The notes beneath the pieces were generated by a model. The model searched no databases. It had not been told where the DNA came from and worked only from the letters and a program-made list of their open reading frames with translations. A DNA stretch of 64,000 nt from Eledone cirrhosa (Eukaryota). Positions within the stretch are counted from its first letter, which is position 1. Every line of letters begins with the position of its first letter. The stretch spans positions 53,382,001 through 53,446,000 of the forward strand of contig OZ024745.1 of the NCBI GenBank assembly GCA_964016885.1. Direction: 5' to 3'. This document shows positions 1-63,125 of this stretch, piece after piece. A program made the translations under genes and the position numbers.

Positions 1-294
1 TAATAATAATAATAATAATAATAATAATAATGATTTCTTTATTAACCACAAGGGTTTACATAAAGTAGACATTAAGGACAGTGCAGGACAATGCAGGACG
101 GTACAAATGGGCATTTCTGCGTGTAAAAAAAACAAAAATAGAGGATGTAACAAAAATAACAATGAAAATAACAATGAAAAATTCCCCAATAGGGGGGAGA
201 CTTCGGAGGGACATTTGTGGAGAAAGCCCAGTAAAAAGCCACAATGACCCTGACCACCAAGGCAAGTGCCCTCTCCCAGTTTTCCACCTTTAGT

Positions 295-3200
295 TTACAG
301 ATATATACTCAGAGTCGGCCCATTCACTCGGGCCATTCTTGCTTCTCTCACCCATCTTTCAACAAAATGCTGGGAAGAGAGCACTTCCTTCTCTACTCTG
401 ATTTTCCTTTTCAAATGAAATTTGAAAAAGTCAATCAGAGCATCACCGAAGAGGTAAGTGCTCGTCTTCAGCCCTTTCAAACGTGTCCACCATACTATCT
501 CTTTCGCCATGGCCACCAGACAGATAAAAACTGCCTGCCCTTCCCGGCTAAAGGAGGAGGGCGGGGCAATCCTCACGATAGACTCAGATGATAGCTGGAT
601 CCGTCCTAAACGCGACAGCAGGTGTTCGACATAAACCCACAAGTCAGCAATTTTCGGACACTGGACGAGTGCGTGCAGGACGGTTTCGTCGCCCTGCGCG
701 CATCTCGGACATGCCCGGCTGACGGCACCTCCATGCCTGTAGAGTTTATCCCGAACTGGCAAGGCTCCTCGGTAGCACTGCCAGGCCAGAGATTTCTGGA
801 AGTTGTCCATAGGCCCTGGCCCGAAAGTTCTTCCGAAGAGATTGGCTAGTTGATTTTCGTCGACGCCTAGAGTTTCCCCAAGTACGTCGTCGCTCTTCCC
901 CTCCACTAATCCTCTATAGAACGCCGAGGTGGAGTTTCCACCGATCACATTGCCCGACTGGTCGAGGGCTGTGAGCGCCTGAAGACATTCCAGTCTCCAG
1001 GCGCTCCCTCTCGGTCTTCGCTTGACCCAGGACTGCAGCTCCGTCAAGGAAACGAGCTGGGGAAAAACGCGTCTAGCAAACGGCGACCACACCTGATCAC
1101 CGTCGAGGAAGAGGTGGAGATGTCGTAGCCTGAGCGCGTGCCTGCGCATCATCAGCCACGGCATGCCCAGCCCTCCACGTAGCGGGTGTTGACAACAGAT
1201 GGACCGCCTGACCATCGGAGCGCGTCCCTTCCACAAAAAGCGAAAGAGCAAACGCTCCAGCGCAGTCAGGCGAGGCTTAGGACAAGATACGACGGTTAGG
1301 CGGTAGCAGATGACAGACGCGATGTACGCGTTAGCCACCTCCGCTCGACCTTTCAGGGATAGCTTCCTCTCGGCCCATTTCTGGGTGAGAGAAGCCACCC
1401 TGCTCGTCACCTCGTCCCAGTTTTTGTCCGTCTGGAGGTCCGGACCGAACCAGACCCCTAGCAATTTAACCGGTCCGTCCGTCCAGCGCCCGACGACGCT
1501 GTTGGACGGCATGGACCTGCCTCTCCAGGTGCCGAGCTGCAGGCCCACTGACTTTTCCTGGTTGATCATTGCTCCTGTCACCGCTTCGTATTCTCTTAGT
1601 GTAGTGCCGATCGCCTCGATGTGTTTGGCGTTCGACACCACTACGGTGACATCGTCCGCATATGCTGACACGGATCTTCCGCATCCTAGTTCGCGCGGGA
1701 CTCCCCTCAACGTCTCCAGTTTGTGCAGTAATGGCTCGAGAGTCAATACGTACAAGAGGGACGAGAGGGGACATCCTTGGCGGACCGAGCGCATGATGTT
1801 GAACGGTTCCGACAGGTGACCGTTCACTCTCACCACAGAGCAGATGTCACTGTGCATGGCAGCGATCCAGCCTCTGAAGACGGGCCCAAAGCCAGCCGCC
1901 CTCAGGACTGCCGCTAGGTAACGATGGTCGACCCTATCGAAAGCTTTCGACTGATCTAAATTGATCAAGGACCCACCCGTGCCAGGTTCCCTAGCTACCC
2001 TCTCTACGATGTATCGCATGAGGTGGAGGTTGTCGTGGATGGATCTGTCGGGAATGGCGCATGTCTGCGCCTCTCCCACCAGACCACCAACGACAAGCGC
2101 CAACCTCTTTGCTAGCACCTTGGCCAAAATCTTAAACTCTGTGTTTAGCAGAGTTATGGGCCTGAAATTGTCTATGTTATCCCCCTTGTTCGGATCCTTT
2201 CTCAGCAGTGCCACCGCTCCTCGGCTCACAGAACTGGGAATTCTCCCGTTCTGTTGCCAGTTGCAGTAGACGTCCGCCAAGAGGCCTCCGAACAAGTCTG
2301 GCATATGTACGTAAAGTTCATAGGGCAGACCATCCAAACCAGGCGATTTACCCCTTGTGCAGCCAGTCATTGCCTCCCGTACTTCAGCGGCTGTTATCGG
2401 CTTTTCGCAACACTTCGCCTCAGTGGCCGAGAGCCGCGGCAGTCCGTCGAGGTAGACACTAAAGTCCATCCCTCTACCCGGCCCCCCGCTGCCCCCGAAC
2501 AGCTGAGCGAAGTGTCGCTGAAAAGCTTCACACATTTGCCCGGGATCGAGTAGCATGCGCCCGTCGTGGTCCACCAAAGACCGGATCGTGGCTTTGTTGC
2601 CACGACGCGCCTCCGCCACTCGGGCCCATTGAACGGCTTTCGTCCCCTCGTGTCTGAGAGCACGCACCCTAGCTCTGACAACGCAGCCTTCGTGCTTTGC
2701 ATTGAAGAATTGGTCAAGGGCCAATTTCGCCGCAAGCACGTCGGTCGCAATGCCTTTGCTAAGCGCCTCGTCTAATTTTCTAACTAGTTCTCCCTCTGCT
2801 CTATTTTTCTCTATTGCTAAAGCCTTACTAAACCTAATCGATTCTATTCTAATCGCTCTTTTCAGAGCAAACCACCACTTGTTGTTGACGATGGCCCCCG
2901 TCAACGCCCGCTTAACTAGTTCGCTAATCCGGTCTCTGTAGGCCTTGCGCGCTGGTAAGGACGCGTTTAGCTTCCAGTAGCCGGGTCCTCGTCTATGAAG
3001 CCTATCTAAGTCAAGCACACAGGTCACGAATTTGTGGTCCGTGTAGCTGACTATCTTGAATTGTGGACAGCCTATGCTAGACCTATCTATTTCCCTACAA
3101 AATACTCTATCTAGATATGATCTGGATGACCCTATGCGGTTTGTCCAAGTCCACATTGGCACATTCGGGAAATCCAATCGGTACCTGTCAGACAGTTCAA

Positions 3201-3714
3201 AACGCCTGAGCAGGTTGGTGAGGCTCCTGCACCCTCCACCCCTATCCGCTAATCCCACACAGTCCCAGCGTGCATCTAAGATCCCGTTCCAGTCGCCCAC
3301 TAACACTAAAGAGCGGGACGTTCCAAGAAAGGTCTCCAGACGCCGGAAGAAATCAGGCCGCCCTGCTCCTGTCGGGGCATAGACGGCCACTAGCCTGAAA
3401 GCTTGCCCGTCTCCGCTGGTCACGTCCAGCACCACCAGCTTACCCTCTGGGTCCAGGAAGATGGCCCGTATGGCGAGATCCAAACCTCTCCGAAAAAGCA
3501 CAGCAACTCCTCCACCCGATCCAGGACGGCTGGGAGATGCGTACACATCGTAGCCGCCGAAGATCGGTGCGAAGGCCCGTGCTTCGGAGATTCTGGTCTC
3601 GCTGATGGCCACTACATCTATGTTTAGTGACCTGAGGTCGTTGAGCAGGTGACCCTGCTTCCATGACGACCCCAAGCCACGCGCATTTATGCTGCCTATT
3701 CTGAGTGAGGTCAT
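295..3714 (-). CDS. ORF2 polyprotein: apurinic-like endonuclease, reverse transcriptase, C-terminal CCHC zinc finger (1139 aa)
   Basis: APE motifs (SINARGL, SETR, VYAP, GDWN, SYLDR, TDH), RT motifs (PGLDG, FRPITLLN, DQSKAFD, RQGCPLS, YADD) and CPRC-X8-HALVQC. The ORF is uninterrupted. Confidence 0.97.
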   Translation of the reverse strand: MTSLRIGSINARGLGSSWKQGHLLNDLRSLNIDVVAISETRISEARAFAPIFGGYDVYASPSRPGSGGGVAVLFRRGLDLAIRAIFLDPEGKLVVLDVTSGDGQAFRLVAVYAPTGAGRPDFFRRLETFLGTSRSLVLVGDWNGILDARWDCVGLADRGGGCRSLTNLLRRFELSDRYRLDFPNVPMWTWTNRIGSSRSYLDRVFCREIDRSSIGCPQFKIVSYTDHKFVTCVLDLDRLHRRGPGYWKLNASLPARKAYRDRISELVKRALTGAIVNNKWWFALKRAIRIESIRFSKALAIEKNRAEGELVRKLDEALSKGIATDVLAAKLALDQFFNAKHEGCVVRARVRALRHEGTKAVQWARVAEARRGNKATIRSLVDHDGRMLLDPGQMCEAFQRHFAQLFGGSGGPGRGMDFSVYLDGLPRLSATEAKCCEKPITAAEVREAMTGCTRGKSPGLDGLPYELYVHMPDLFGGLLADVYCNWQQNGRIPSSVSRGAVALLRKDPNKGDNIDNFRPITLLNTEFKILAKVLAKRLALVVGGLVGEAQTCAIPDRSIHDNLHLMRYIVERVAREPGTGGSLINLDQSKAFDRVDHRYLAAVLRAAGFGPVFRGWIAAMHSDICSVVRVNGHLSEPFNIMRSVRQGCPLSSLLYVLTLEPLLHKLETLRGVPRELGCGRSVSAYADDVTVVVSNAKHIEAIGTTLREYEAVTGAMINQEKSVGLQLGTWRGRSMPSNSVVGRWTDGPVKLLGVWFGPDLQTDKNWDEVTSRVASLTQKWAERKLSLKGRAEVANAYIASVICYRLTVVSCPKPRLTALERLLFRFLWKGRAPMVRRSICCQHPLRGGLGMPWLMMRRHALRLRHLHLFLDGDQVWSPFARRVFPQLVSLTELQSWVKRRPRGSAWRLECLQALTALDQSGNVIGGNSTSAFYRGLVEGKSDDVLGETLGVDENQLANLFGRTFGPGPMDNFQKSLAWQCYRGALPVRDKLYRHGGAVSRACPRCAQGDETVLHALVQCPKIADLWVYVEHLLSRLGRIQLSSESIVRIAPPSSFSREGQAVFICLVAMAKEIVWWTRLKGLKTSTYLFGDALIDFFKFHLKRKIRVEKEVLSSQHFVERWVREARMARVNGPTLSIYL

Positions 3715-61972: not shown

Positions 61973-62750
61973 GAGACTTAGCCGGAATGATTGCAATATA
62001 GTAGAGACCACTAAAATTCTCTAAGAGCCAGTTGTTGCTATTAAACAGGAGGGTGCATTAAATCTACCACCCAAGACCAGGAGATATCTCTCTGGTGGGC
62101 TTCTTCGTAGCATAATTTCCTTCTACTCGCGAAACTTCAGTCGATCTGAAACTCTTTACAAACCATTTTGTTTTCTGTGGGACAGAACTTGAAAACAATT
62201 TGTTTCGAAATGAACATCTTAACTCCAAATCCATTCTAACGGAAAATAAATAAAAACTTCAGAAAATTCATAGATATAGAAGCTATCCACCGTGGCGTAT
62301 CATTTATGATATATAGTCCAAACAATATTTTGAATAAAAATTAATGTATTCTGTTAAACTGATGAAACTAGCACCAGGCGATCTGTATAATAAAAAAGAG
62401 CTTGAAAGGGACAAATGAACACATTGTCTCTACATATGGTCATAGAACATCTAAGTGCAGTTTATAAAAAATTCAAGATAATTTAAAGTGGTCTCTATAA
62501 ACCTTTCCACGAATCAGACCATGAACATTTCTCCAAGGAAAATAGAATGTATTAAATTATAATATACAAATCAATTCTACTTTAGAAAAATATCAAGTAT
62601 CGAAACTCATTATTTATTCCACTATATTGACATCTTAATAAAAACCGCAATAATAACAACAGCAACAACAACAATATTATTGTTGTTATTATTATTATCA
62701 TTTGAAGTAGTAGTAGTAGTAGTAGTAGTAGTAGTAGTAGTAGTAGTAGT

Positions 62751-63125
62751 TCTTTATGAGCTACAAGGGCCGAAACATGAAGGACAATTCAAAAACCAGG
62801 GACAGTGGAGGTTTATAAATAAAATCGAGTAAACTAGATGACAAAAAATACAAGAGTACTTAATAGAAATCCCCAATTGATGTAGTGGGTGGGGGAAGAA
62901 CTTCCCTCTTCTCTTCCTGTCCAAATGGGTTTTGATAAAGTTGATGGAGGCTTGTCTGTCTTCAGTCCTTTCAGCCGGGTCCACCATACAACATCTTTCC
63001 CCACAATGACCAGACAGAAGAAAACTGACTGATATTCCTACACCAAAAAAGTGGCGAGGCGATCTTCACGATGAACTCAGTCGGTAACCAGATCCGTCCT
63101 ACGTGTGGTAATAGCTGTCCGACGT
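62751..63125 (-). mobile_element. Tx1-clade 3' fragment ending in (CTA)n
   Basis: Translates to VGQLLPHVGRIWLPTEFIVKIA..VFFCLV..KDVVWWTRLKGLKT. Tail cccttgtagctcataaagaa is followed by (CTA)n at 62706-62750. Confidence 0.85.

Follow-up and report, generated by a model that had tools for sequence, protein, structure and literature searches.

Repeat targeting by sister families of a Tx1-type LINE lineage in Eledone cirrhosa

A window of 64,000 nucleotides from Eledone cirrhosa (assembly GCA_964016885.1, contig OZ024745.1, positions 53,382,001 to 53,446,000 of the forward strand) was analysed for its Tx1-type long interspersed nuclear elements (LINEs), of which it holds three copies and one 3′ fragment, all abutting microsatellites. 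They belong to a lineage whose families lie in ATT, TATC or TGTC repeats or at one base of a 72-bp repeat unit. Copy 1 has two open reading frames (ORF1 and ORF2), the second with an apurinic/apyrimidinic (APE)-type endonuclease (EN) and a reverse transcriptase (RT). The features concerned are as follows, in window coordinates.

1–31, no strand: (AAT)10.3, the 3′ flank of copy 1; the run has 19 units and extends left beyond the window
32–6059, minus strand: copy 1, family A1, a full-length, intact, young Tx1-type LINE with ATT as target
295–3714, minus strand: ORF2 of copy 1, encoding an APE endonuclease, an RT and a zinc-binding domain at the C terminus; TNRIGSSRS as hairpin loop
3750–5846, minus strand: ORF1 of copy 1, whose translation has a single zinc knuckle, CX2CX4HX4C
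6060–6077, no strand: (AAT)6, both tail to copy 2 and head to copy 1; its 18 bp are the size of one target duplication
6078–11017, minus strand: copy 2, family A2, of the same ORF2 lineage as copy 1 with another 5′ untranslated region (UTR) and ORF1; ~0.8 kb has been lost internally from this decayed copy
11018–11036, no strand: (AAT)6.3, the 5′ flank of copy 2
11039–11374, plus strand: a frame that we take to be GIY-YIG-like, in the host sequence of the A2/A1 stack, probably part of a Penelope-like element
53969–53986, no strand: (CTAT)4.5, the 5′ flank of copy 3
53987–58616, plus strand: copy 3, family B, decayed with both ends kept; TATC as target; hairpin loop RNHSGQSRS
58617–58687, no strand: (TATC)n passing into (TC)n and (TA)n, the 3′ flank of copy 3
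62706–62750, no strand: (AGT)15, on the element strand (ACT)15, the 3′ flank of fragment 4
62751–63125, minus strand: fragment 4, an old 3′ fragment from an ATT-group family

In the ORF2 of copy 1, PF03372, PF00078 and PF13966 were all above the Pfam cut-off, and ORF1 had no Pfam match. A separate ORF1 with a gag-like CCHC knuckle is a feature of the Tx1 group. Copies 1 and 2 are 92–94% identical in ORF2 DNA, but the core of the ORF1 protein is only ~51% identical and the 5′ UTRs are unrelated, a pattern that suggests a 5′ swap of the kind known for L1. The ORF2 protein of copy 3, which has two internal deletions (~870 and 285 bp), is 54–72% identical to that of copy 1; fragment 4 is ~73% identical over 150 nt and has no repeat on its 5′ side. 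All four elements end in AATAAA or CATAAA, then 3–8 nt and then the repeat. A sequence-only reading of the window had reported (AAT)n at both ends of copies 1 and 2, (CTAT)n before and (TATC)n after copy 3, a CTA-type repeat after fragment 4 and no poly(A) tail anywhere, and each of these observations held, with the run at 6060–6077 being shared by two copies. In the non-LINE part of the window ATTATT occupies 0.11% and TATCTAT 0.026% of positions per strand, so that the likelihood of a chance flank match is small.

Across the 3.0-Gb genome, the generic 3′-end pattern of the lineage gave 39,705 matches as compared to 125 for the reversed control, and an ORF2 match was present at 27 of the first 30 loci. 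When the last 140 amino acids of the copy 1 ORF2 were searched, the 150 scored of 57,957 candidates were all 100% identical; many of these sit in full-length frames and in arrays spaced ~6.05 kb. About 420 loci (L numbers below) were read in all, many from contigs C1–C4. The family A sample consists of 40 of 150 matches, 20 picked for short and 20 for long frames, that of family B of 30 loci, and for family F 20 were fetched, 13 of them with an intact 5′ end.

The 3′ flank of family A is ATTATTATT, each of the first 9 positions being present in at least 39 of the 40 copies. An ATT run precedes the 5′ end in all 35 full-length copies (9–63 nt, median 24), the 3′ run has a median of 45 nt, and 13 of the 35 stand directly after the 3′ end of another copy; 4 of the 5 truncated copies also adjoin ATT. 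In family B the 3′ flank is TATCTAT (29–30 of 30 per position) and at least one terminal TATC is found at the 5′ end in 30 of 30, of which 11 come after another Tx1 end. Target duplications anchored in unique sequence were found at L128 (18 bp), L032 (20 bp), L076 (17 bp, alongside a 5′ inversion) and L114 (18 bp), and in family F (18, 17 and ~21 bp); the screen gave 14 candidates among 304 ends, the remainder being array or low-complexity matches or counted with the F set. An automatic screen of truncated copies, from which 18 of 53 rows had been removed as potentially chimeric and in which many rows lie in arrays and are not independent, found the motif of the copy's own clade at the 5′ junction in 5 of 11 copies of the ATT group and in 15 of 24 of the clade with TCT-type tails (TCT clade, with families B, B2, B3, F, G and H), and never the motif of the other clade, against a background of ~4%. 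Therefore, with 5′ ATT in every full-length A copy, often in truncated copies too, and with duplications of 17–21 bp, repeat targeting by this lineage is real. The traits expected of target-primed reverse transcription, i.e. target-site duplication and 5′ truncation or inversion, are present. In families A, B, F and G the share of flanks of one sequence type is far above the 20% used as a criterion in PMC4494074.

On the element strand the A2/A1 stack reads (ATT)6, copy 2, (ATT)6, copy 1, (ATT)19, which is consistent with two successive 18-bp duplications in one host element. The element split by the stack is probably Penelope-like. The break falls at a run of AAT (asparagine codons), with a part that we take to be RT-like on one side (L423:9119–9874, left of the window) and one that we take to be GIY-YIG-like on the other (window 11039–11374); the sequence on both sides is probably one such element, although the frame of this host had no Pfam match. 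At L015, L016, L028 and L029, 3′ of the ATT run, the 3′ ends of other LINEs lie in reverse orientation on one AAT/ATT run with family A; these are presumably R4/Dong-like, from the C-terminal motifs of their frames. The arrays at L138, L156 and L160 have copies with identical interrupted spacers on both sides, which suggests that some arrays grow by tandem (or assembly) duplication instead of new insertion. For copy 3, no empty-site joint was seen in the contigs of 4 sequencing runs, which has no bearing on polymorphism.

Two further families were found by their tails. Family F came to light through patterns excluding ATT and TATC tails; it has 193 matches, and ~84 of the 100 listed begin with TGTC by hand count. 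Its 3′ flank is TGTCT (27–29 of 29 at positions 1–5, then 19 of 29 at position 6), the 5′ flank is TGTC-type in 12 of the 13 copies with an intact 5′ end, and the ORF2 frames are intact in L276 and L278. Family G was traced from 12 of the first 100 generic ends and has 326 matches; in 100 of the 100 listed 3′ ends the insertion is at one base of a 72-bp unit, and 9 of 9 junctions, read at 7 loci, have the same last 26 nt before the 5′ end, while local units vary. The 72-bp unit lies within an element with TTAA at its borders and inverted ends of 14 bp (both sides seen in L339, L340 and L342; TTAA precedes the terminal motif in 14 of 16 occurrences, from overlapping loci that are not de-duplicated). 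We read this host as a piggyBac-type miniature inverted-repeat transposable element (MITE), taking its TTAA/CCC ends to be piggyBac features. The 3′ junctions of B, F and G have a common core, namely T, C and T at flank positions 3–5 and T at position 7. The G copies listed on contigs C1–C3 cluster within ~31 Mb of contig ends. Loose targeting is seen in H and B3, of which copies lie in other minisatellites (L396 and L397, units of ~12 and ~25 bp). For L419 and L301, TCT-clade copies of different families, the insertion site is identical, a non-repeat TATCTGT within another repeat; a short motif therefore suffices for insertion in this clade. The subterminal TAGA of B (window 58603–58625) and CAGA of F (L276) complement the opening unit of the tail (TCTA or TCTG); this would allow a 5-bp hairpin with one compensatory pair, which other TATC families do not have.

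In an ORF2 tree of 26 rows (quick method) the lineage forms one clade (100) and the TCT clade another within it (100). The ORF2 identities are 74.8% for A–D, 67.8% for A–B2, 84.0% for B2–F, 88.7% for F–H, 83.8% for G–F and 80.1% for G–B2, with 80–89% inside the TCT clade, where intact ORF2s occur. An RT-only tree of 21 rows (careful method) places D with the TCT clade (100/99) and the closest named homolog, a protein of Argonauta hians with 73% identity over the RT region, with A (83/92), from which an ancestral ATT target would follow. For {A, D, P0003} as one clade the approximately unbiased (AU) test returned p=0.0017, but the Argonauta protein, which falls with A, was not in the set, so that the test is not a fair one. 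In a PDB search human L1 matched the RT better (E 1e-34) than R2 did (E 2e-21); the functionally named matches among those listed were TX1-named proteins only (Alligator 40%, Stylophora 32%), and an ESM Atlas search returned unnamed RT/APE clusters only.

Flank type was then set against a DNA tree of 176 ends, for which rows of A, F and G were thinned out and which has an excess of CTT and TC tails through pattern-based selection. The tree separates 58 rows without TCT-type tails from 118 rows without ATT tails, both with 100. Changes of flank label number 56 against a shuffled mean of 108.5, none of 200 shuffles being as low, and the G label needs 1 change. The sequence-only reading had named two findings that would speak against it, namely repeats at 3′ ends only with random 5′ flanks, and flank type unrelated to subfamily. 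We found repeats on both sides together with target duplications, and ATT families never have TCT-type flanks, nor the TCT clade ATT. Its claim of one lineage on different targets thus stands for ATT and TATC, with flank type following the tree, but falls for (CTA)n. Likewise, the proposal that closely related subfamilies switched target does not describe ATT versus TATC, where ORF2 identity is 68%, but it does describe TATC to TGTC and TATC-like to the 72-bp MITE repeat. Given this identity and the grouping of the Argonauta protein with family A, the ATT/TATC split is likely old.

The (CTA)n subfamily itself was ruled out, since none of the 27 closest relatives of fragment 4 has an (ACT)n end and the fragment is placed among ATT families; it is a stray copy of the ATT group. 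A DNA search with the fragment gave mainly matches to ATT-tailed families and no relative above 80% over 170 nt, except 87% over the last 83 nt (L065, with an ATT-type tail). Its exact end, allowing at most 1 mismatch, has 2 matches genome-wide, the second resembling ATT family D. A diagnostic 22-mer of its 3′ UTR occurs at 28 sites, and of the 27 others ~21 end in an ATT/AAT-type repeat (by eye). In the DNA tree the fragment is the sister of an ATT-tailed copy within the ATT group. Non-ATT trinucleotide tails gave 198 matches, multiply counted; the 100 listed have mostly ATT then (CTT)n, or (ATC)n, and few have (ACT)n.

The hairpin loop of the endonuclease, read between T192 and S202 by alignment to L1-EN and its Tx1L chimera, has L1 length in this lineage. 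A and D have one and the same loop, TNRIGSSRS, despite 72% EN identity. In the TCT clade the loop is RNHSGQSRS for B, ANRSGQSRS for B2 and (A/S)NRSGSSRS for H. Young F copies have SNNSGQSRS and older ones TNHSGQSRS, and TNRSGTSRS is common to G and L397, a B3 copy; the consensus is xNxSG(Q/S/T)SRS. The motif YAPT is changed to Y(A/G)PF in intact ORF2s of the clade, and to Y(A/G)P(F/S) in B3. The loop comparison that the sequence-only reading had proposed therefore separates ATT from TCT families but does not explain the fine targets. This fits with PMC1950540, where the Tx1L hairpin loop grafted onto L1 did not transfer specificity. Faster EN divergence in target-switched pairs gave no clear signal, as EN ranks with the most diverged parts of all pairs, same-target pairs included. 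As the loops leave the fine switches unexplained, pairing of the RNA end with the target likely contributes.

Taken together, we favour, with a probability of roughly 0.78, a single L1/Tx1-type lineage in which each family has a repeat of its own (ATT, TATC, TGTC, or a single base in the 72-bp repeat of a piggyBac-like MITE), likely through nicking of a short motif of the family group by the APE endonuclease and likely pairing of the RNA 3′ end with the first repeat unit. We infer the steps from the observed flanks, duplications, missing poly(A) tail and stacking. Transcription would pass AAUAAA into the downstream repeat, and the endonuclease would nick, in ATT families, the strand that reads AAT and, in the TCT clade, the one that contains AGA. 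The terminal RNA repeat unit may then pair with the strand whose 3′-OH has been freed, so that reverse transcription would begin there and poly(A) be skipped. A second nick 17–21 bp downstream would duplicate the target, whereby each insertion would leave a fresh site and copies could stack. The old change from ATT to TCT likely required alterations of the endonuclease at the hairpin and YAP loops, and in the recent shifts among TATC, TGTC and the 72-bp site small endonuclease changes likely went together with altered RNA ends. Hints of target sequence carried by the RNA are the near-fixed first TGTCT in F, A ends with ATT then (CTT)n, and the invariant 26 nt before the 5′ end of G. Pairing of the RNA end with the target has precedent in R1 and SART elements. 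For SART1 the abstract of PMC7265360 does not show such pairing.

Several observations weigh against this reading. The motif is missing at the 5′ junction in 6 of the 11 truncated ATT-group copies and in 9 of the 24 of the TCT clade, and the single truncated G copy shows a duplication of 9 bp and not 17–21. The ORF2 and RT-only trees disagree on the ATT families as one clade. Targeting in the TATC families is loose, with TC, TA and other tails scattered on the tree (16 changes for TC as compared to 16.5 when shuffled). The loop is not one-to-one with the target, as TNRSGTSRS occurs both in G and in L397 of B3, and L422, with TATC on both sides, has the loop and nearly the endonuclease of the TGTC-flanked L404 and L283.

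The last of these also bears on a different explanation, whereby the TCT-clade endonuclease is essentially unchanged and cuts any NNTCTNT, the repeat being chosen by RNA-end pairing alone, so that the target is inherited from the donor flank and perpetuates itself without protein change. We consider this improbable. L422 has an older-F endonuclease yet lies in TATC; three copies with the sister diagnostic base and the T-type subterminal sequence lie in pure TATC-type flanks (hand count among the 100 listed F-pattern matches); and both the near-fixed first TGTCT of F, after which later units vary, and the invariance before the 5′ end of G amid varying local units agree with it. Yet in the hairpin and YAP loops each of F, B, B2, H and G has substitutions of its own, the placement of G at one base of a 72-bp unit would hardly be achieved by a few paired bases, and the ATT/TCT divide is unexplained without protein change. 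A related idea, which we consider unlikely, is that the RNA end is a short heritable guide in an active Tx1 radiation: a nearly unchanged endonuclease would cut a loose TCT core, and the repeat unit at the RNA ends would pick and re-create the landing repeat. If so, switches from TATC to TGTC to the MITE minisatellite could start without protein change and be re-programmable by a few RNA bases.

The repeats might instead be made by the element itself, as a 3′ slippage tail and an encoded repeat head at random insertion sites. The longer 3′ than 5′ ATT runs (the medians given above), the short target-like head that full-length copies appear to have and the truncated copies without a 5′ repeat would agree with this, but truncated copies, with any head lost, still adjoin the repeat far above background, the unique-anchored duplications start with the motif, L128, L032 and L419 have no added tail, and other LINEs, oriented the opposite way, hold A copies in their (AAT)n tails. 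This explanation is largely refuted by the target duplications, and we regard it as very improbable. Hardly more credible is broad insertion followed by selective retention in neutral repeats, with tandem duplication or assembly artefacts in arrays. The identical spacers at L138, L156 and L160 fit tandem duplication, but strand-fixed, family-specific motifs in copies 98–99% identical to each other would not result from retention, solitary copies on many contigs have the same flanks, and different families are mixed within arrays.

Comparable elements are known. Teleost Kibi inserts in (TC)n and Koshi in (TTC)n, and the crocodilian Tx1-1_Crp group in (TTCC)n/(TTTC)n (PMC4494074). As with these, we find Tx1-type LINEs that prefer microsatellites, with related families on related repeats; unlike these, the repeats are ATT, TATC and TGTC, the host is an invertebrate, the ends number ~40,000 and several intact sister families occur in one genome. 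Specific (TC)n or (TTC)n insertion of the Kibi/Koshi type was not found, as TC and CTT tails are scattered inside TATC and ATT families, and a separate Kibi-like (TC)n subfamily was ruled out, the TC ends being scattered among TATC families. In Xenopus laevis Tx1L targets Tx1D, a non-autonomous piggyBac element (PMC4494074, PMC1950540), and isolated Tx1L-EN nicks its site specifically (PMC1950540). Family G is similarly placed, its fixed insertion base lying in an element that has terminal inverted repeats and TTAA on its flanks. It differs in that its hairpin loop has L1 length and is not that of Tx1L (PDB 2v0r), and in being nested among the TATC/TGTC microsatellite families at 80–87% ORF2 identity, for which reason G likely arose independently of Tx1L. 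Target switching in Tx1 is already known, since the related crocodilian families Tx1-Mar and Tx1-9_AMi use different transposon targets in one host group (PMC4494074); in contrast, the switch seen here is between microsatellite and transposon-borne minisatellite among young intact families. Dong/R4 LINEs insert in (TAA)n (PMC7998251), the same repeat as that of the ATT families, but Dong has a restriction-like endonuclease and uses the opposite strand, whereas this lineage has an APE endonuclease. Octopus vulgaris has 80 L1-Tx1 families, 13 of them young (PMC13282606), and the word "target" is absent from the main text of that paper; the Tx group is treated in PMC3747384. No report of Tx1 targeting of ATT, TATC or TGTC, or of any cephalopod case, was found in the open literature, although Repbase, subscription papers and supplements may contain entries. 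Target-specific Tx1 elements and their target switching are thus already known; what is unusual is how compact this set of intact sister families on different targets is.

These families are of interest for how APE-type retrotransposons gain or change sequence specificity, and for the study of APE endonuclease specificity the sequence-only reading had proposed ATT, TATC and CTA as a natural series. Such a series exists, but inside the TCT clade (TATC, TGTC and the 72-bp MITE repeat), the proposed three not being the better set. Intact ORF2s that are 11–20% apart have different targets there (B2 TATC, F TGTC, G the 72-bp site), and those of A and D versus the TCT clade, 25–32% apart, have the same or different targets. 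Swaps of domains, loops and RNA ends would be directly testable on these families, with a possible use in targeted gene insertion. With ~40,000 ends the lineage shapes the repeat arrays of this genome by splitting and duplicating them. Every insertion does duplicate 17–21 bp of repeat; the creation of new repeats is not supported, and the suggested seeding of microsatellites was not borne out, because the copies in non-repeat sites (L128, L419 and L301) gain no repeat tail.

Elsewhere in the window, an abundant SINE-like repeat (short interspersed nuclear element) of ~110 bp at 25703, 26441, 26522 and 53330 has an end motif resembling the Tx1 3′ end, followed by ATTAT. A 47-bp satellite of 90 copies (34062–38254) and a 32-bp minisatellite of 19 copies (29015–29615) are both unrelated to the 72-bp unit.

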